IMG/VR virus record: IMGVR_UViG_2541047873_000001
DNA: 64,000 nucleotides
DNA from: a virus
Taxonomy: Duplodnaviria > Heunggongvirae > Uroviricota > Caudoviricetes
Strand: one strand, 5' to 3'
Part shown: positions 4,095 through 44,699 of the stretch, in pieces
Position numbering within the stretch: position 1 is the first letter of the stretch
Layout of the letters: each line of letters begins with the position of its first letter
Notes under the pieces: generated by a model
Told to the model about the DNA's origin: nothing
What the model saw: only the letters and a program-made list of their open reading frames with translations
Database searches by the model: none
Made by a program: the position numbers and the translations under genes

Positions 4095-5455
4095 CGTTAA
4101 TTAACTGGGAAGCGCATCGAGCTAAGTTCCTGGAGTTAAGAGAAGAAACCGGGATCACCATAAAAGAATATTGCGAGCAGCATGACCTCAGCTTTAACAC
4201 CGCCAGAAAGCATCTCAATATGAAAAAAAATGAGGTTAAGGCGAAAGCTAAGGCTGCCGGGAAAAGTACAAAACAGCGCGCAAAAAGCAGCGCCACCGGC
4301 TCAAAAAAAGAGCAAAAAAAGGCTGATAAAAGCACAGAATTTACAAAAACTGACAAATCGTTAGCTGGTGGACGGTTCCGCGCCATGCCGCAAAAACAAA
4401 ATGCGGATCACAAAGAAAAGCCAAGTAATAACAACAAGATACACAAGGATGTGAAGGGATCATTTTGTGATGAAATGGGAGAAATGATCCCTAAAAGCAG
4501 CGAAAAAGCCCAACGAAACAAGGGATCATTGCAAATGATCCCTGACTCATCAGCTCAAAGCGCCACTTTGCCTGCCACCAACGTCGCCCGTGAGATGATG
4601 AAGAACGGCGCGACTGAACATTTACGACTTGCGATACAGATGGCGCAGGAACGAGCAATTCAGTATCAGGCCATCGTTGACCAGGAAGCGGAGCGACTAC
4701 AGGAAGAGATTGACGCCCTCGGCGATACACAGCCAGAGGGGATGCACCCAGGGCAGCGTCTTCTCGGCCTAATAAGCGATGCGGCCTACTACATGAATGA
4801 CTTTATCAGTAGGTTGGCAGCCATCTACCAGACCGAGCAGAAGCTACGCCAGGGGGATGAAAAACTTGCGCAGGGCGCGCGTCAGCAGGCATTCAGGGAG
4901 GCTGAGGCCAGAGAAAAACTGGCGATTGCCCGCCTGCAAGCCGAGCAGCGTGGCAAAGAGATTGAGTATCGCATTGGCGCTGACGCACGCGCCGCCAGGG
5001 TTATCGCCGCCGCTATACGTATGCGTGAGCGCGAGGAGCTGGACGATATAGGCGTAGCTGAATATATCGAGCGGCAGGGCGTCAGTGTCCCGGCTATCCT
5101 GGCGGCACGAGCGGCAAAAGCGATCTCACTTCTGGAGCCTCCGGTTTCTGACGTTAACGATGTTGATGATGAGCAACTGGATAAAGAGGCGAAGCAGTTT
5201 GCCGAGCAACAAGCTGGACTCCCACAATGGCTTGCACAACGCCGGGCTGAAGTAGCGAAAATCGTTGATAGGCTTGGGATGGGGGATTACGACCGGAACG
5301 GAGAACGTAAAGCCGGTGAATTTGAGGCCAATGATGAAGACCTGAATATAGACCCTTCCGCCACGGCTGATATCTACGGTGATTATGACGCGGGGGATAC
5401 CGGTTTTGATGCTGTAGATGACGAGATTGCGATAGACCAGCCGGAGGATGACTAA
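4091..5455 (+). CDS. pacA: terminase pac-recognition subunit PacA-like
   Basis: 454 aa; N-terminal HTH-like segment, long charged coiled-coil middle; stop overlaps the large terminase start (TAATG); contains the GATC cluster. Confidence 0.6.
   Translation: MTLINWEAHRAKFLELREETGITIKEYCEQHDLSFNTARKHLNMKKNEVKAKAKAAGKSTKQRAKSSATGSKKEQKKADKSTEFTKTDKSLAGGRFRAMPQKQNADHKEKPSNNNKIHKDVKGSFCDEMGEMIPKSSEKAQRNKGSLQMIPDSSAQSATLPATNVAREMMKNGATEHLRLAIQMAQERAIQYQAIVDQEAERLQEEIDALGDTQPEGMHPGQRLLGLISDAAYYMNDFISRLAAIYQTEQKLRQGDEKLAQGARQQAFREAEAREKLAIARLQAEQRGKEIEYRIGADARAARVIAAAIRMREREELDDIGVAEYIERQGVSVPAILAARAAKAISLLEPPVSDVNDVDDEQLDKEAKQFAEQQAGLPQWLAQRRAEVAKIVDRLGMGDYDRNGERKAGEFEANDEDLNIDPSATADIYGDYDAGDTGFDAVDDEIAIDQPEDD
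4403..4546. other. candidate pac site (Dam-methylatable hexamer cluster)
   Basis: Five GATC-containing hexamers (GGATCA / TGATCC) in both orientations within about 140 bp inside pacA, including two copies each of gggatcatt and aatgatccc; P1 pac has clustered TGATCA/G hexamers within pacA. Confidence 0.5.
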
Positions 5456-6963
5456 TGGCTGGTGGTCGTAAGATTAAGTGCGTCACCAGTGATCCACGTT
5501 GGCGCGATATGGTTATCAGGTATCGATACAACTTTACCCAGGCGGTTGTCGATATTTTTGGGATGTTACCCTCCCACCAGCAGCAGCAGATCATTCAGTC
5601 AGTGCAGGAGACGGGGAGCAGGACGACCGTTACGTCCGGACACGGAACGGGTAAGTCGTCCCTTACCGCGATGTTGCTACTAATTTTCATGATCCTGTTC
5701 CCCGACGCCCGCGTCATTATTGTTGCGAACAAAATAGGCCAGGTAAAAACAGGCGTATTCAAATACGTGAAACAGTTTTGGGCGAATGCTGTTAAGCGTC
5801 ACGGCTGGTTACAGACCTATTTTGTCCTGTCTGACACCATGTTTTATGAGCGTTCCCGTAAAGGGATATGGGAAGTGCTCTGTAAAGGTTATCGACTCGG
5901 TAACGAAGAGGCACTGGCGGGGGAGCACGCTGAGCATTTACTGCTAATCCTTGATGAAGCATCGGGCATATCCGATAAGGCGATTAACGTCATGACGGGG
6001 GCGTTAACGCAGAAAGATAACCGTATGCTCATGCTTTCCCAGCCTACGCGTCCAAGCGGTTACTTTTATGAATCTCACCATTCAAGGGCAAAGGCAGAAG
6101 GCAATCCGGAAGGTGTCTGGACGGCAATAGTCCTTAACTCTGAAGAATCACCATTCGTTGAACCGAGCTTTATTCGTGAGAAATTGCTGGAGTACGGCGG
6201 CAGGGATTCGCTGGAGTACATGGTTAAGGTGCTGGGCCAGTTCCCGCGTGCAATTAACGGGTATTTGCTTGGTCGTGATGAGTGCGACCGCGCCGCACGG
6301 CGTAAAGTGTTGCTGGAGAAAGATTGGGGCTGGGTAGCGACCGCTGACGTCGGTAATGGTCGCGACAAATCGGTGCTCAATATATGCAAAGTATCCGGTT
6401 ATCGTGAGAAACGACGCGTTGTGAACTTTAAGATACTGGAGATGCCAGGCACTATGGACCCGTTGGCTTTTGCCGACTTTATCTATAACGAATGCACTCC
6501 TGATAAATACCCGAACATCACCATTGCTGTGGATGCTGATGGCTTTGGTTCAGATACGTGTGCGCAGCTTGTCCGCCGTGGTGCTAATCCCGTTCGCATC
6601 CGTTGGGGTAAGCCTATGTTTGCGCTAAGAGACAGAGAACGCTTTGTCAATCAGCGTGCTTACGCCAATATTATGGCAGGGGATGCCATTAAATCAGGGC
6701 GTATGCGTATCGATAGTGACCCCAAAACCGCAGATCAGGCATCAAAAATCCCGTATATGCTTAACGAAGAAGGGAAGGTAGCGATGATGCGCAAGGAGCA
6801 CATGCGGCAGAAGTTAAACATCAAGTCGCCGGACAGATGGGATACCTACTGCTTCACTATGCTGGTGGATTACGTGCCTGCTAATGAAGACATTGGCGCA
6901 GAACTCGCAACATTCCGCGATCAGGTGTTGGCAGAAGTGGATATTCCTGATATTGACATTTAA
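5455..6963 (+). CDS. pacB: terminase large subunit PacB-like
   Basis: 502 aa; Walker A-like GHGTGKS and downstream LLILDEASG (Walker B-like) ATPase motifs; follows pacA with 1-nt overlap. Confidence 0.75.
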   Translation: MAGGRKIKCVTSDPRWRDMVIRYRYNFTQAVVDIFGMLPSHQQQQIIQSVQETGSRTTVTSGHGTGKSSLTAMLLLIFMILFPDARVIIVANKIGQVKTGVFKYVKQFWANAVKRHGWLQTYFVLSDTMFYERSRKGIWEVLCKGYRLGNEEALAGEHAEHLLLILDEASGISDKAINVMTGALTQKDNRMLMLSQPTRPSGYFYESHHSRAKAEGNPEGVWTAIVLNSEESPFVEPSFIREKLLEYGGRDSLEYMVKVLGQFPRAINGYLLGRDECDRAARRKVLLEKDWGWVATADVGNGRDKSVLNICKVSGYREKRRVVNFKILEMPGTMDPLAFADFIYNECTPDKYPNITIAVDADGFGSDTCAQLVRRGANPVRIRWGKPMFALRDRERFVNQRAYANIMAGDAIKSGRMRIDSDPKTADQASKIPYMLNEEGKVAMMRKEHMRQKLNIKSPDRWDTYCFTMLVDYVPANEDIGAELATFRDQVLAEVDIPDIDI

Positions 6964-24987: not shown

Positions 24988-25592
24988 TTTTCTAACATTT
25001 TAAGTTGAATTATGAGATCCACCGTTGTACATTCACAACCGATTGGTACACCGGTCAACTTTTTGAGACAAACCGTTTGGTTTTTCGTATGATTGCCGCC
25101 GCCATACCAATGGCGGTGCAATATAGGTGGCTGAAAAGCCCCCGTTGACTCACGGTGTTCCAGCCTTTATTGCGCCGCCACCAGACCGTGGAACAGTCGA
25201 TGGCGGCTCCGAAAGCAAGGAGTCACTACACTATGAACAGCTACTGTCTTTTCCCATCACTCGTTGTCCGCCACTCACGCGATAATCTGCATTCTTTACT
25301 CGCGCTGGGGGTGTCAAAATGACCGTTCGCTACCTCAACTTTCAAATCCAGAACATCACTGGCGGTTGCTATGACTGGTTTGTCACTCTCGGAAAAGAAG
25401 TGATCACCGGGAAGCTGGATGAAGTGAAAGCTAAAGCAATGGCCTACGCCTGCAAGCAAGCCCAAAAGAAGAAAAGAAAAGCATAAGAAAACACACAGTT
25501 GCGCCCTGGCATTATCGTGGGGTATATTTCTACGGCACCTTAGAAAAACGGGTGCCGGGATTGGAACCCCGGATAATGCAAAAGGCGACACA

Positions 25593-25616
25593 GACGCCGA
25601 AAGCGTCTTTTTTTGT
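25593..25616 (+). terminator. rho-independent terminator
   Basis: gacgc-cgaaa-gcgtc hairpin followed by T7. Confidence 0.7.
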
Positions 25617-25639: not shown

Positions 25640-25790
25640 GTAGCGTTTAGCTCAGAGATCAATGGTAGTGCTGGCTGGGCTGCCGAAAGGCAGGCCGGTT
25701 CCCTTTTGCGCCGGTAGTTCCAACCCAGTCAGTGCTACCGCCATTGAGATTGGAACCTCACGCGGTAGCTCCTTAAATTAGCAAAAGGAG
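25640..25790 (+). ncRNA. c4-like structured regulatory RNA candidate
   Basis: No ORF; 16 bp stem (25664-25679 with 25724-25739) enclosing hairpins; repeated GGTAG/CTACC elements complementary to the region just ahead of the downstream RBS; position matches P1 c4. Confidence 0.35.
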
Positions 25791-29365: not shown

Positions 29366-29696
29366 TCAACTCAGTAGCTTTGTTAACTCCCTTAATACCA
29401 GGTAGAAGAGTAACAAAAATACTAACGCCAGTATTTGCGTGGTCAACGAGGCGTTCATAAACAGAACAATTAGCTTTAACAATTCGAGAATAACGTCCAT
29501 GTCATTCACACTATTTAATTTTTAATCTACAGCCAGCAAACAATGAAGCTGGCCCCCGCATAAAGATTAATGAAAGTCACTTGTCACCAGTGAGGGGATT
29601 TATGAACCACATCCCCCTGAACTGGTGGACTGTCTATTTCTCGCATTTCACACCCTGCATACAGTTCCCCCCAGGTTATGACTGTGAGGAACTGTT

Positions 29697-30026
29697 ATGA
29701 GTTACAGCAGGCTCGACGATCGATGCATTGAAGACGATGTGCTGCGCGCACTATTCCATCAGGAGATGATCAAGCGGGTATCGGAGTACCACTCCGATAA
29801 TTTCCAGTACACGATAAAAATTGATGAGGTTTATCGCTCAGACCTGGCGGCCTATCGCGCCTATGGCAACGCTGATTTGCGCTGGGTATTTCGCGTGCTG
29901 GTGGGCCATGAGTCAGAAATGGAAGAAATGCCGGTAGGGACAACGTTAACTCTTCCTGACGCAGCATGGCTAAGAAACAAGATTCGCGATTACGCTGGCT
30001 CGGCACCGGAGATAGAAAATGCCTGA
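29697..30026 (+). CDS. hypothetical protein
   Basis: 109 aa; stop overlaps next gene start. Confidence 0.45.
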   Translation: MSYSRLDDRCIEDDVLRALFHQEMIKRVSEYHSDNFQYTIKIDEVYRSDLAAYRAYGNADLRWVFRVLVGHESEMEEMPVGTTLTLPDAAWLRNKIRDYAGSAPEIENA

Positions 30027-31215
30027 CTTCCTGAAAAATCAGGACGGGCGATATATCACTGACGGCCTGTCCTCTAAGGATTTCACACGCGTATTTGAAC
30101 TCATCAGGAAAGAGCAAAACCGCAAACGCCGCCAGGCGCACAGGACACTCACGCCGGGCAGGCTTAGGAATAAATCAGCCGAAGACATTCTTAAGCTGGG
30201 GAAAAAGAAAGGCGGCACGTTCTTTACGCGTGACGATCTGAAAGGCTTCGAAAAGCTGCGAAGCAAAGCACGCGAAAAATACGACAGCAAGACGGCTGGC
30301 ATTACATACGCACAACTGGTAGCGTCCAGCCAGGCTATCGATATTAAGCGAGCAAATAACGCCGTAGACGACGGTTCTGGTATCAAAAGAGCTACGCCCG
30401 TATCTCTTCGTCACAATGTGATTAATATCCGCGTGGAAGCGTCCGATATATCCGTTCACCAGCACCACATTGTCCGGGTACGTTTTGAAGAATGGGATCA
30501 GATGGTCGATGACATCGCAGAAGACGATAAATCAGCCCTGAAAGTCACAAAATCACTGTGTGCCGGGCGAGTGTCTTTCGATTGTGACTGCGGTCGCCAT
30601 CAATACTGGTATCGCTACATCGCCACTGCGGGTAACTTTGCCCTGGCCCCGCCAAAAGAATACGCCTATCCAAAAGTTCGCAACCCTAAGCTGCAAGGCG
30701 TCGCCTGTAAACATGTGATCCACTCAATGACACGACTACAGTCTGCCAGTTGGCAGATGAGTATTGCTCGCGCCCTGCAAAAAGCTGCAACGCAAGTTGC
30801 CTTTGGTGACGATCGCCGCCGCACGACAAAACACTTCACAAAAGAAGACGAGAAGGCGTTCAATCGAAACCGTAGCAGCAAAACGAATGTTGAGGCAGCT
30901 AAACGTGAATGGAAGCTCTATCAGAAACGCCAGGCCGCTTTAAGCACAAAACTGGCAAAGGACAACGGCAAGATTGACAAGCTACGTGACCAGCTGACCA
31001 GGGCCAGAAAGTTGTCCGATGCACAGAAAAAACGGGCAGCAGCAAAAGAAGCAGCCTTGCAACGTGAGAAACAGAAAAACAAGGAGCTTCAGCAACGCCT
31101 TGCCGATCAATTCGCACTGAAGAAGCAAGCGTTCATTGATGCGCTGGTCATGACAGGAACGTCACCTGAGCAAGCTGAAAAAATGTTTATGGAGTATGTG
31201 AAGAAAGGTTCTTAA
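30019..31215 (+). CDS. SWIM-type zinc-finger protein with basic coiled-coil C-terminus
   Basis: 398 aa; CDCGRH...CKH (CxC..CxH) SWIM-like motif; Lys/Arg/Gln-rich coiled-coil C-terminal third. Confidence 0.5.
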   Translation: MPDFLKNQDGRYITDGLSSKDFTRVFELIRKEQNRKRRQAHRTLTPGRLRNKSAEDILKLGKKKGGTFFTRDDLKGFEKLRSKAREKYDSKTAGITYAQLVASSQAIDIKRANNAVDDGSGIKRATPVSLRHNVINIRVEASDISVHQHHIVRVRFEEWDQMVDDIAEDDKSALKVTKSLCAGRVSFDCDCGRHQYWYRYIATAGNFALAPPKEYAYPKVRNPKLQGVACKHVIHSMTRLQSASWQMSIARALQKAATQVAFGDDRRRTTKHFTKEDEKAFNRNRSSKTNVEAAKREWKLYQKRQAALSTKLAKDNGKIDKLRDQLTRARKLSDAQKKRAAAKEAALQREKQKNKELQQRLADQFALKKQAFIDALVMTGTSPEQAEKMFMEYVKKGS

Positions 31216-31223
31216 TTTACAAC

Positions 31224-31248
31224 AAAGGCGGTTATCCCGCCTTTTATA
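31224..31248. terminator. bidirectional hairpin terminator
   Basis: aaaggcgg-ttatc-ccgccttt flanked by T runs on both strands, between convergent genes. Confidence 0.6.
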
Positions 31249-31986
31249 TTACTTGTCCTTTGATGTCGATTGAGACTCATATATTGTCTCTACGTCATCT
31301 ATTAGTTTATTAATACCCCACAATCCAGTGTCTTTATAAAAATCGCTTTCTTCAATTGCTTTTAATAAATCGGCAAAATCTTCTTGGGTGGAAATTCTTT
31401 TCTTTTTTGCTTTATATACATCGACAATTACTTTTATGCCGTGATACAGAGCCAATCTGGCACTCTCAGTCTCTCTCTTCTTCTCTTCAATTGCAGACAA
31501 TAATTTATATTGATCTTCTGTTTGCTTTTCTAGACTTAAAAGCTTGCTCTCTTTTTGCTTCAAGTTGATCTGCAACTCTTTTATTCTTGCCCTCTCTTCT
31601 AAATCAAACTCATAGTCAATGTATCTAATTCTTGCATAGTTCCTGCCTGTTGCTTTTGATATATACATTGTTATATAAGGCATTACCACTGACGCAGTGG
31701 TTCCATATATAAATGGCATAACAAAATGAGCCACAAACGGAGATACAATGATGGGGCCAACATAAGGAAAGTGATATTTCTCACCAACCCATACTATAGA
31801 CAATGTTGTATATATATCGTACTTTGATTTAAATAATATAATAATATCCTGCCAGTTAACGACAAAGAAAGAAACCACAACATATGCAAACAACTTATTG
31901 AATAACTTGTCTCTTATGGCTTCTTCTATTGTGTTCCTGACTGTGACATTTTCATCTTTATTTTCTAATGATGAATCTTTGCTCAT
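31249..31986 (-). CDS. AT-rich membrane-anchored coiled-coil protein
   Basis: About 245 aa; roughly 33 percent GC versus about 50 percent flanks; hydrophobic helices in residues 30-110 then long coiled coil; immediately downstream of higA on the same strand. Confidence 0.6.
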   Translation of the reverse strand: MSKDSSLENKDENVTVRNTIEEAIRDKLFNKLFAYVVVSFFVVNWQDIIILFKSKYDIYTTLSIVWVGEKYHFPYVGPIIVSPFVAHFVMPFIYGTTASVVMPYITMYISKATGRNYARIRYIDYEFDLEERARIKELQINLKQKESKLLSLEKQTEDQYKLLSAIEEKKRETESARLALYHGIKVIVDVYKAKKKRISTQEDFADLLKAIEESDFYKDTGLWGINKLIDDVETIYESQSTSKDK

Positions 31987-32047
31987 ATAAAAATTCAAAC
32001 CTTCTTATCTTTATTTTTGGTGAAGGCGGTCTTCCAGACCGCCAAAC

Positions 32048-32407
32048 TCAAACACCAACCAGGCTTTCAAGAGGAATGCCAAACTGGGAATGTAAACGAC
32101 GAATCATAGGTAACGTCAAATTTCGCGTGCCATTAAGCACTTCGTAAACACGGTTTGACTTACCAATTGCCGGTTCCAGATCCTTCACTGTCAGCCCTTG
32201 CTGTTCCATACGAAACTTAATGGCTTCAATAGGTGATGGTGGCTCAATTGGGTAATGCTTTTTCTCGTACTCTTCGATGAGCAGGCACATTACTTCAAAG
32301 AAATCGCCTTCCGGTGTGTTCATTTCCGGTTCGTTATCGAACATCGGTTCGACCGCACGCAGTGCGGCCTCATAATCTTGTTCTGTACGGATAGGTTTAA
32401 TGTTCAT
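32048..32407 (-). CDS. higA: HigA-type antitoxin (HTH)
   Basis: 119 aa; C-terminal HTH GKSNRVYEVLNGTRNLTLPMIRRLHSQFGI resembles HigA. Confidence 0.75.
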   Translation of the reverse strand: MNIKPIRTEQDYEAALRAVEPMFDNEPEMNTPEGDFFEVMCLLIEEYEKKHYPIEPPSPIEAIKFRMEQQGLTVKDLEPAIGKSNRVYEVLNGTRNLTLPMIRRLHSQFGIPLESLVGV

Positions 32408-32410
32408 GAT

Positions 32411-32713
32411 TTACTCCAGTTCTATTGTATCCGCTTCAATGGCATCATATTCCTTATGTGTTCCAATAAACTTAACGAACATCCATCCTCGCTGATAAGC
32501 AATTGCGACAATTAACCTGTAATCATTTCCCTTAATATTAAACACCACGCGCCTGTTTTTAAGGATGCTGGCTGTCCGGTACTGTTCTTTGATCTCAGCC
32601 GGATTTTTCCAGTCAGCCTTTGTTGCTTCATCAACCCATGCCTTTAATGGCTGTTCTGCATCGGGATTCTTCGCCCAGAAATCCCTTAGTGTTTTTACCG
32701 AAATTATTTTCAT
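32411..32713 (-). CDS. higB: HigB-type toxin (RelE/ParE superfamily)
   Basis: About 100 aa from MKIISVK; FNIKGNDYRLIVAIAY...FIGTHKEYD matches the HigB pattern; toxin gene precedes antitoxin. Confidence 0.8.
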   Translation of the reverse strand: MKIISVKTLRDFWAKNPDAEQPLKAWVDEATKADWKNPAEIKEQYRTASILKNRRVVFNIKGNDYRLIVAIAYQRGWMFVKFIGTHKEYDAIEADTIELE

Positions 32714-32732
32714 CACAGATTCCTTCTCTCTG

Positions 32733-32779
32733 AAAGTATAGTAGTCCCAATATGGGACAATGTAAAGCACTTTAGTCCC
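32733..32779. promoter_or_regulatory. tandem palindromic operator candidates in higBA promoter
   Basis: agtcccaatatgggac and agtcccatgctgggat: two imperfect palindromes 31 bp apart just upstream of higB. Confidence 0.5.
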
Positions 32780-32857
32780 ATGCTGGGATATGAATTGAAA
32801 TCACAATCTCCAGACAATGCCCCTCGATACCAGATAAATCGACCTTTGAGGACGCTT

Positions 32858-33649
32858 ATGGGCCGTTTTGATGAATGGCTTGCTGATGATGCAAGCCTGA
32901 TGAGAAAGGGAACAGAACATGACAGCACGCAGAGAGAAGAGACAACGACGGTTGAAGCGAATGAAGGAAGCACAACGGAAAATGGGAATGTCAGTGCAGG
33001 GCCATTCAGTATTCTGGAAGAGCACGCCGCCACCCAATCTAATAGCCATGATAATTGGCCTGATAATGCTGGTGACTCTGTTACGGAAGTGATTGAACCT
33101 GACATCGCTCCCCTACCGGCATCGCTCGCTAACAGAGAACCAAACCAGCAGCTTAAAACCCGATATAACGGACACAAAGCGTTCAACGACCAGATCCGCG
33201 CCGATTGGATGCTCATTATTGAATCAAGCCCTGACGCATTCGAGGCGCTTTTATATCGCCCGGCTGATGGCACCTATGGCGTCGTAAACGATGAAACAGG
33301 TGAAGAGTCATTCACGCAACTGGACAACAACCAGCGTGAGCTTACCTATCTGGAACCGGAAATCGTATACGTCCTGGACAACCCGGACGGAAGGGATTCG
33401 TTTCATGCCATTGATGCCGATGGAGAACAGGATGGTCTTGCTGATGAAGTGCTAATCCTGCGTATTGCTGCAAACAACGTACCTGTTGGTTCAATCCTGG
33501 AATGGAACGAAGAAATGGCGAATGGCCTCGCCCGCCGCTGGTGGTACGTGCACCGAATCTTCAGCTACGGAACACAACACGTCGGCTCCCTTTATTACTG
33601 CATCCCGGCTAGGAACTTTGATACCACTCAAAACGGAGTGATCGAATGA
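32858..33649 (+). CDS. acidic hypothetical protein (possible baseplate or virion protein)
   Basis: About 263 aa from MGRFDEW, very acidic; first gene of an operon ending in a spike protein. Confidence 0.45.
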   Translation: MGRFDEWLADDASLMRKGTEHDSTQREETTTVEANEGSTTENGNVSAGPFSILEEHAATQSNSHDNWPDNAGDSVTEVIEPDIAPLPASLANREPNQQLKTRYNGHKAFNDQIRADWMLIIESSPDAFEALLYRPADGTYGVVNDETGEESFTQLDNNQRELTYLEPEIVYVLDNPDGRDSFHAIDADGEQDGLADEVLILRIAANNVPVGSILEWNEEMANGLARRWWYVHRIFSYGTQHVGSLYYCIPARNFDTTQNGVIE

Positions 33650-43485: not shown

Positions 43486-43812
43486 ATGACTAAAAATACT
43501 CGTTTTTCCCCCGAAGTCCGTCAACGGGCAGTCCGTATGGTTCTGGAAAGTCAGAGCGAATATGACTCACAATGGGCGACAATTTGTTCCATTGCTCCAA
43601 AGATTGGCTGTACGCCGGAGACTCTGCGTGTCTGGGTTCGCCAGCATGAGCGGGATACCGGGGGCGGTGATGGAGGGCTCACCACCGCTGAACGTCAGCG
43701 TCTGAAAGAGCTGGAACGTGAAAATCGTGAACTGCGCCGCAGTAACGATATCCTTCGCCAGGCTTCCGCTTATTTTGCGAAGGCGGAGTTCGACCGCCTC
43801 TGGAAAAAATGA
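43486..43812 (+). CDS. IS629 transposase OrfA
   Basis: 108 aa HTH/leucine-zipper protein, recognised as IS629 OrfA by eye. Confidence 0.9.
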
Positions 43813-44699
43813 TGCCACTGCTGGATAAGCTGCGTGAGCAGTACGGGGTCGGACCGCTATGCAGCGAACTGCATATTGCCCCGTCAACGTATTACCACTG
43901 TCAGCAACAGCGACATCATCCGGATAAACGCAGTGCCCGTGCGCAGCGCGATGACTGGCTGAAGAAAGAGATACAGCGCGTATACGATGAAAATCACAAG
44001 GTATACGGTGTGCGTAAAGTCTGGCGTCAGTTGTTACGGGAAGGTATCAGAGTGGCCAGATGCACTGTGGCACGTCTCATGGCGGTTATGGGACTTGCCG
44101 GTGTTCTCCGGGGTAAAAAGGTCCGTACGACCATCAGCCGGAAAGCCGTTGCCGCAGGCGACCGCGTAAACCGTCAGTTCGTGGCAGAACGACCTGACCA
44201 GCTGTGGGTGGCTGATTTTACTTACGTCAGCACATGGCGGGGCTTCGTCTATGTGGCGTTCATCATTGATGTGTTTGCCGGATACATCGTGGGGTGGCGG
44301 GTCTCATCGTCCATGGAAACGACATTCGTGCTGGATGCACTGGAGCAGGCGTTATGGGCCCGTCGACCGTCCGGCACGGTCCATCACAGTGATAAAGGTT
44401 CTCAGTATGTATCGCTGGCCTACACACAGCGGCTTAAGGAAGCCGGATTACTGGCATCAACAGGAAGTACAGGCGACTCGTATGACAACGCGATGGCGGA
44501 GAGCATCAATGGTCTTTACAAAGCGGAGGTAATACACCGTAAGAGCTGGAAAAACCGTGCAGAAGTGGAACTGGCCACACTCACGTGGGTGGACTGGTAT
44601 AACAATCGACGATTGCTGGAAAGGCTGGGCCATACTCCTCCGGCAGAAGCAGAAAAAGCTTATTATGCTTCCATCGGAAACGATGATCTGGCAGCCTGA
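43809..44699 (+). CDS. IS629 transposase OrfB (DDE catalytic domain)
   Basis: 296 aa in the -1 frame relative to orfA, overlap at the A-rich aaaaaatg region consistent with programmed frameshifting. Confidence 0.9.

Follow-up and report, generated by a model that had tools for sequence, protein, structure and literature searches.

The window analysed here is a 64,000-nt stretch of DNA from a tailed virus (Caudoviricetes; IMG/VR record IMGVR_UViG_2541047873_000001), and it represents a D6-like phage-plasmid, with the 1.8-kb region of interest being 99.9% identical to the Escherichia coli plasmid NZ_LR890273.1 (92.8 kb, rep_cluster_1704). This region carries a predicted toxin-antitoxin (TA) pair, higB-higA, followed on the same strand by a third gene, referred to here as X, and the three lie between two tail genes related to genes 25 and 7 of phage P1. 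An earlier reading made from the letters alone (the sequence-only reading) had placed these genes on the minus strand, and all three open reading frames (ORFs) were found there. The features of the cassette are:

32775-32788, minus strand: operator candidate 2, GTCCCATGCTGGGA, an imperfect TCCCA-N3-TGGGA palindrome (5/6 arm positions) upstream of the -35 element.
32744-32758, minus strand: operator candidate 1, GTCCCA-N3-TGGGAC, a perfect palindrome in the promoter spacer between -35 and -10.
32738-32766, minus strand: PhigB, a sigma-70-like promoter identified by promoter scan (-35 TTTACA, 17 nt, -10 TACTAT), with the same promoter present in locus L008.
32411-32713, minus strand: higB, 100 residues, predicted RelE-fold mRNA interferase toxin (Pfam HigB_toxin; PADLOC PD-Lambda-2_A, 1e-41; PDB 5IFG_A).
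32048-32407, minus strand: higA, 119 residues, predicted antitoxin/repressor with a C-terminal helix-turn-helix (HTH) domain (HTH_3; PDB 5IFG_B).
32025-32043, minus strand: residual stem of the higBA terminator, GGCGGTCT/AGACCGCC, its T tract gone; unflagged by the terminator scan here, flagged in L008, which lacks X.
32023-32030: 8-bp direct repeat AAGGCGGT on the higA side of the X module, from the junction comparison with L008.
31249-31986, minus strand: X, a 245-residue member of phrog_8191 with a predicted membrane hairpin, a long helix and, at the C terminus, a variable head.
31225-31232: 8-bp direct repeat AAGGCGGT on the gene-25 side of the X module, from the same junction comparison.
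31224-31244: bidirectional terminator hairpin common to X and the convergent gene-25-like gene, from the terminator scan.

The product of higB matches the HigB_toxin family (PF09907) with an E-value of 3.3e-34, covering profile positions 1-74 of 74, and the solved E. coli HigB (PDB 5IFG_A) with 1.1e-7. That of higA carries its HTH_3 domain at residues 63-115 and matches the solved E. coli HigA (PDB 5IFG_B) over residues 6-112 (2.1e-8). The gene order is toxin-first and the coupling is tight, with 3 nt between the higB stop codon (32411-32413) and the higA ATG at 32407, while the GC contents are 40.9% for higB and 45.3% for higA, against 48.25% for the window. The naming of the first two genes as a HigBA pair was therefore borne out by both the Pfam matches and the homology to 5IFG. 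By sequence the two genes appear to form a genuine and self-contained type II TA pair of the PF09907 HigB/HigA family, as the pair also occurs alone, in L008 and in L010. Like the E. coli K-12 HigB-HigA (YgjN-YgjM, 5IFG; PF09907), to which it has direct sequence homology, the window pair has a toxin-first order, a RelE-fold toxin, an antitoxin with a C-terminal HTH domain and palindromes at its promoter. It differs in its shorter antitoxin (119 vs 138 residues), in its location within the tail operon of a phage-plasmid and in the third gene fused at its 3′ end. To the HigBA subtype of Klebsiella (103/139 residues) the window pair is only about 25% identical. Papers on D6-like prophages name higA-higB only as a post-segregational killing system and leave the third gene unmentioned (PMC6799933).

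The sequence-only reading had also proposed two palindromic operators at the higB promoter. Two related palindromes were indeed found, with candidate 2 lying 31 bp upstream of the perfect palindrome, although the span given for them (32733-32779) ends 9 nt short of the second site. Both can be compared with locus L010 (1966-3669 of the E. coli plasmid pMTY1886_NA2, 97 kb, typed IncHI1B), where higBA without X sits directly beside an integrase gene in an unrelated flank and encodes proteins with 90% and 96% identity to the window pair. The arms of both palindromes are kept in L010, only the 3-nt centres vary, and homology stops at the outer palindrome. The palindromes are thus candidate HigA operators for which the conservation of the arms provides good comparative support, and the locus shows that the two-gene higBA module moves on its own.

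The boundary between higBA and X becomes apparent on comparison with L008, a D6-like plasmid with higB-higA intact and X absent. In L008, higA is followed by a single hairpin and the tract TTTGTTGT, and the scan flags these as a terminator. The corresponding stem in the window (32025-32043) precedes TTCACCAAAAA instead and goes unflagged, and the TTTGTTGT tract now follows a second hairpin, located after X. This second hairpin (31224-31244) is flagged by the scan on the plus strand and is followed on the minus strand by TTTGTTGT, the same tail as in the L008 terminator, in agreement with the bidirectional terminator proposed earlier for the end of the unit. Between the stem and the T tract lie 798 bp, with an 8-bp direct repeat at each junction, and X appears from this comparison to be a separate module of 798 bp lying within the higBA terminator. 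Regardless of whether the event was a gain or a loss of X, the higBA terminator is left without its U tract, which makes it likely that transcription from PhigB reads through into X, and the promoter scan found no promoter-like site in the 61-nt spacer between higA and X. The notion of a single three-gene unit does not fit these findings, X being a module of its own whose alleles have been swapped beside an invariant HigBA.

The start codon of X is placed at the ATG at 31986, with homologs aligning from MS(K/A)DSS and the Prokaryotic Genome Annotation Pipeline (PGAP) calling the identical 738-nt gene in NZ_LR890273.1; an alternative TTG start at 31998 is also open. As the sequence-only reading had observed, the gene is sharply AT-rich. 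Its GC content is 33.3% compared to 48.25% for the window, it is the sole stretch of the 64 kb under 38%, and only 0.1% of 738-bp windows are as GC-poor. Hydropathy analysis indicates hydrophobic segments at residues 32-52 and 72-106. An AlphaFold model based on a 55-sequence alignment (mean predicted local distance difference test score of 88.6) shows, in order, an N-terminal helix, a membrane helix, a short beta hairpin, an unbroken helix at residues 83-193 and a three-helix C-terminal head. The hydrophobic N-terminal helices and the long helix described earlier were consequently recovered, but heptad periodicity is weak, so that this segment is more safely described as a long helix which probably forms a coiled coil. 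Both hydrophobic segments have basic residues next to their cytoplasmic sides, and on the basis of hydropathy and the positive-inside rule X is therefore predicted to span the inner membrane as an N-in/C-in hairpin, with its long helix in the cytoplasm.

X matches phrog_8191 over its full length (5.9e-115), with the conserved N-terminal motifs KDKLxN, NWQ and LPxxxG...P. Among 1.84 billion representatives, a profile search returned 72 clusters (50% identity) at E ≤ 1e-3, most of them full-length at about 200-380 residues with a few short fragments; a further profile search added one remote member among the matches listed, and a scan of genome contigs gave two loci. In an alignment of 17 divergent members N44, P91, G95, P103 and Y191 are invariant and the same architecture is seen throughout. 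The ratio of nonsynonymous to synonymous substitution rates (dN/dS) between closer X alleles is 0.16-0.33 overall, being 0.11-0.17 in the N-terminal membrane half and 0.2-0.69 in the C-terminal half. Because of the overall values, X is regarded as a functional gene under purifying selection, its N-terminal part conserved and its C-terminal part changing fast. About 80% of the D6-like plasmids in PLSDB (roughly 100/122 records) carry an X allele.

Among D6-like elements, HigB (100% identity) and HigA (98-99%) hardly vary, whereas the X alleles share no more than 37-38%, with values of 47-52% for residues 1-120 and 22-27% for residues 121-245. At least eight X allele groups occupy the slot between genes 25 and 7 (the 25/7 slot), one of which (P0008) looks mosaic. 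An unrelated RelE (PF05015)-HigA pair has taken the place of higB in phage D6 and in many plasmids, with the 119-residue HTH gene and X being kept; the X counterpart in phage D6, orf73, lies in the 25/7 slot after this HTH gene and is 37% identical to the window X. The orphan HTH gene decays where higB has been replaced, being truncated in L055, frameshifted in L027 and split by an IS3 insertion sequence (IS) in L057, with X intact. A match is carried by 100/5426 complete E. coli genomes, always on plasmids of about 90 kb, and the footprint of the truncated HTH gene is the commonest among them (19/40 evenly sampled rows, one verified). X and HigBA thus appear to evolve independently: to judge from these loci HigBA can do without X, and X without HigB as well as without HigA. 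This mutual independence makes an obligate three-component system, which the sequence-only reading had offered as one possibility, unlikely, with each part occurring without the other (L008 on the one hand; L055, L027, L057, L040 and copies without TA genes on the other), and the same applies to X as a toxin guarded by HigA. The latter candidate, X as toxin with HigA as its antitoxin, was rejected, since X stays intact whether the neighbouring HigA is truncated, frameshifted or split by an IS, and is also found on its own.

The genomic contexts of X were examined in about 20 independent lineages among the 72 family representatives. X-family genes were found 55-92 bp downstream of, and on the same strand as, five TA pairs: HigB1/HigA1, HigB2/HigA2, RelE/HigA, TacA/TacT and RelB/ParE-RelE. 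The second of these (103/139 residues, the K-12-like subtype) precedes X on Klebsiella IncFIB/HI1B plasmids, on a D6-like contig and on a Leclercia chromosome. Compared to the window, X of this Klebsiella/Leclercia triad is 41% identical, and HigB and HigA are 25% identical. On the Klebsiella plasmids X is usually split by IS903B with higBA intact (L012, K. pneumoniae pKPN945A, 5001-6798), a footprint seen in about 16 of the 60 tblastn rows listed, all Klebsiella. In a distant P1-like phage (L039, 3218-4705), HigB-HigA-X occupies a slot of its own upstream of pmgC; its PmgC is 53% identical, and its X is 24% identical to the window protein. The same pmgC slot holds TacA-TacT-X in L040 (2722-4657) and L051 (2068-3726), and in L040 a 68-residue N-terminal relic of HigA marks the replacement of a former HigBA by TacA-TacT, with X kept. 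A lost HigB has therefore been replaced upstream of X in two phage lineages, by RelE/HigA in D6-like elements and by TacAT in L040/L051. RelB-ParE/RelE is found ahead of X on an IncF plasmid.

Other homologs stand alone, and no TA gene was annotated or detected beside X in those contexts examined (P2-like, lambdoid, umuC-like, AAA_21/methylase and chromosomal islets). In E. coli P2-like prophages (L014-L016, 4001-4651) X lies antisense between gpS (tail completion) and gpV (spike). The homolog there (P0029) has 216 residues and adjoins a 247-residue gene with a faint HNH match, and this site may be a further small cargo slot. Stand-alone copies are also present in lambdoid prophages, at the tail end and in the nin region, behind umuC-like genes, beside an AAA_21 ATPase and a C5 methylase, and in several chromosomal islets, one of them near an AAA_13 gene. 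The gaps upstream of such copies are mostly roughly 200-750 bp, L037 at 54 bp behind a umuC-like gene being the exception, and these long gaps are consistent with the copies having promoters of their own. With regard to the co-occurrence of X with HigBA, it is accordingly recurrent behind TA pairs but also occurs without them. The contexts support the view that TA operons lie upstream of X far more often than a random neighbour would. Coincidence seems unlikely, because X is found at operon distance behind five TA pairs and because HigB has twice been replaced by another TA.

The slot occupied by the cassette is bounded by two tail genes:

30019-31215, plus strand: P1 gene-25-like tail gene, left boundary of the slot (phrog_1722, 1e-195; D6 orf74 is annotated as "similar to P1 gene 25").
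32858-33649, plus strand: P1 gene-7-like tail gene, right boundary of the slot (PGAP start; phrog_1906 match over residues 26-289).

The tail genes around the cassette are of the D6/P1 type, with a gene 26-like gene (29697-30026) and the 25-like gene on one side and 7-like, 24-like and 6-like genes on the other. The gene-7-like ORF is also open from an ATG at 32780, which would overlap the outer operator candidate; the start at 32858 is favoured by PGAP and by the extent of the PHROG match, and it leaves a divergent intergenic region of 144 bp. In P1 itself (L006) genes 25 and 7 are only 3 nt apart within one late operon, and because of this the higB-higA-X cassette, which is antisense to the late tail operon, appears to be acquired cargo inserted between two tail genes; an acquired cassette had been suspected in the earlier reading. 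Comparison of L006, L008, L055, L056 and L057 shows the 25/7 slot to be a hotspot of variable antisense cargo across D6-like phage-plasmids. Its contents include higBA-X, higBA alone, RelE/HigA with a HigA relic and X, a lone "stationary phase growth adaptation protein" and an IS3 insertion.

A second slot was observed directly upstream of gene 26, where some D6-like plasmids carry another RelE/ParE-HigA pair (L056, 955-1526; L009, 1-175; L055, 1-91); at this position the window has a 47-residue ORF only (29366-29509). Elsewhere in the window there are five tRNA genes on the plus strand (1158-2186: Arg-tct, Tyr-gta, Thr-tgt, Ser-tga and Met-cat). Rfam matches were obtained to isrK (62.5 bits, 25535-25613) and, adjacent to it, to the C4 antisense RNA known from the immunity region of P1/P7 (76.7 bits, 25658-25745). 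An ALIL pseudoknot (120 bits, 43767-43883), the frameshift element of IS3-family transposases, indicates an IS3-type insertion sequence there.

A number of known systems resemble parts of the cassette. In PD-lambda-2, component B combines an HTH domain with a C-terminal peptidase, component C is related to a P4 phage antitoxin, and the third gene is required for defence and not for neutralisation (Vassallo et al. 2022, PMC9519451). The window HigB gives its PADLOC match to component A (PDLC03979) and HigA matches positions 1-119 of 402 of component B (6.7e-43), and both systems have a third gene. However, the window HigA ends at residue 119 without the C-terminal peptidase and X is unlike component C, and with these two parts missing in the PADLOC comparison membership of PD-lambda-2 was rejected. 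Membership of the toxin-antitoxin-chaperone (TAC) systems was also rejected, as X has no SecB match in Pfam and is a membrane protein with a long helix.

The relB-relE-relF(hokD) locus of E. coli K-12 consists of a TA operon followed by a same-strand gene for a membrane protein, relF encoding a Hok-type peptide of about 50 residues. The window shares with it a RelE-superfamily TA pair with a downstream membrane gene, and the likeness is one of architecture. In contrast to relF, X has 245 residues with a long cytoplasmic helix and a head, shows no Hok similarity and has no Hok/Gef match in Pfam, and a third gene of the relBEF or Hok type was rejected. The exclusion and abortive infection (Abi) proteins encoded by morons, such as P22 SieA/SieB, lambda RexB and T4 Imm, are like X small inner-membrane proteins expressed from prophages and encoded by AT-rich genes in variable slots. 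No sequence or fold similarity between these proteins and X was detected and the likeness is one of context; homologs of X do occupy moron-type slots in P2-like and lambdoid prophages.

The reading preferred here is that two nested mobile modules, higBA and X, share one cargo slot of a D6-like phage-plasmid, with X encoding an anti-phage factor expressed in the lysogen. HigBA would pair a toxin that acts as a ribosome-dependent mRNase with an HTH antitoxin/repressor, would be autoregulated through two TCCCA-N3-TGGGA operators over its promoter, and would serve mainly as a plasmid-addiction module. The X module would have entered the higBA terminator at the precise point where stem and T tract meet, such that transcription from PhigB probably runs on into X and ends at the hairpin of X itself. 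Expression of X would then be low and antitoxin-controlled in the lysogen while the late tail operon is silent. This would amount to regulatory hitch-hiking, the TA promoter offering steady, antitoxin-limited expression of X that is derepressed on loss of the antitoxin. The variable C-terminal head of X would set specificity and its conserved membrane domain would be the effector. X looks like a conflict gene, being AT-rich, moron-like, absent from P1 and composed of a conserved membrane part with a hypervariable cytoplasmic head, and for this reason an exclusion or Abi factor is favoured.

Confidence differs between the components of this reading. It is high for the anatomy and evolution, that is the gene identities, the module boundaries, the independence of X and HigBA, the recurrent placement behind TA operons and the purifying selection. 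That X acts as a membrane-anchored anti-phage factor, by superinfection exclusion or abortive infection, was also suggested in the sequence-only reading; it is a reasonable guess and distinctly more doubtful. Taken as a whole, the reading is put forward tentatively, at a little under an even chance. A broader version would make the X family a set of membrane anti-phage effectors wired to TA promoters of any family, with the TA pair as sensor of host shut-off. A phage blocking host expression would cause the labile antitoxin to decay and the operon to be derepressed, upon which X would fire, its head tuning target specificity. Such a design would account for the position of the replacement TAs ahead of X, though it is considered unlikely.

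Several observations weigh against the preferred reading. No homology links X to phage resistance. X has no match in NCBIfam, none in PADLOC at E ≤ 1 and no fold relative in PDB or BFVD, and in Pfam there was only a sub-threshold match to DUF6947 (17.7 bits vs a cut-off of 27). These hidden Markov model and structure searches leave the third protein as unrecognised as it was in the sequence-only reading. Library matches of 55 X-family members (LmuB, JetC and ZapB) were dismissed as coiled-coil noise. The short periplasmic loop in the model would speak against a classical injection block from outside. As for expression, co-transcription of higBA and X is suggested by just two things, the displaced T tract and the short spacing; X may have a weak internal promoter, and D6 and L009 have a partly T-rich stretch next to the hairpin downstream of higA, which may terminate transcription there. 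Lastly, with about 20 lineages sampled of the 72 representatives, the linkage of TA and X is not yet a statistic. In addition, no match to SLATT/DUF4231 or to CBASS effectors with two transmembrane segments (2TM) was obtained for X in Pfam or PADLOC; an "Effector 2TM" match appeared in 1/55 family members and was marginal (4e-4).

The alternative that survives best is an integrated three-gene defence system in which HigBA would be the sensor and regulator and X a required partner, be it effector, membrane anchor or trigger receptor. Loss of the antitoxin during phage-induced shut-off would derepress the operon or free the toxin. The survival of the HigB-HigA-X order through deep divergence (the Klebsiella/Leclercia triad and L039) favours such a system, as do the two independent replacements of a lost HigB by another TA directly upstream of X and the strong matches to PD-Lambda-2 A and B, given that PD-lambda-2 needs its third gene for defence (PMC9519451). 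Nevertheless, X alleles differ by more than 60% beside identical HigBA, which renders a specific protein-protein interface unlikely. Furthermore, higBA persists without X (L008) or with an IS-split X (L012), X is retained beside a truncated HigA in the absence of HigB or stands alone, and the TA families upstream of X are mechanistically unrelated (mRNase vs acetyltransferase). An integrated system is for these reasons unlikely.

Somewhat less probable again is mere co-location, where X and the TA modules would be unrelated cargo gathered in a few permissive slots and X would have its own promoter and no tie to higBA. The other cargo of the 25/7 slot (the "stationary phase growth adaptation protein" and IS3), the further TA pairs upstream of gene 26 and the many X homologs lacking a TA neighbour are all in keeping with this. 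It is difficult, however, to account by chance for a same-strand spacing of 55-92 bp behind five TA pairs in separate elements, or for an insertion exactly between terminator stem and T tract, and the promoter scan detected nothing resembling a promoter between higA and X.

It is also improbable that X serves the phage-plasmid itself, through membrane tethering or partition, control of lysis timing or host adaptation in lysogens. Its presence in about 80% of the D6-like PLSDB plasmids makes it near-core, it sits among virion genes, and its combination of membrane anchor and long helix is common among scaffolds. On the other hand, P1 and some D6-like plasmids that look viable lack X, the gene runs antisense to the late operon, its homologs are found in unrelated phages, plasmids and chromosomes, and its extreme allelic diversity and low GC content are typical of conflict genes rather than housekeeping genes. 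The remaining alternative, X as a membrane-damaging toxin which reinforces post-segregational killing like relF/hokD after relBE and is held in check by HigA repression, is very unlikely: the layout parallels relB-relE-relF, the membrane domain is conserved and the gene lies downstream of an autoregulated TA promoter, yet X remains intact next to a HigA pseudogene and in places with no TA nearby, and its length and large cytoplasmic part are unlike those of Hok-type peptides.

A HigBA addiction module in a prophage cargo slot is of a kind already known, and the anatomy itself holds nothing very surprising; what is new is a hypervariable membrane protein family recurrently fused 3′ of TA operons. 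Should X turn out to be unrelated cargo, the finding would shrink to an ordinary HigBA addiction module beside an unknown moron gene. TA pairs are abundant on plasmids and in prophages, and their roles beyond addiction are still debated. If X is an exclusion or Abi factor driven by a TA promoter, its family would be a defence gene family missed by PADLOC, Pfam and NCBIfam, and TA operons would gain a concrete regulatory job. The 25/7 slot of the D6-like phage-plasmids, which are carried by about 2% of complete E. coli genomes, would then be a defence hotspot.

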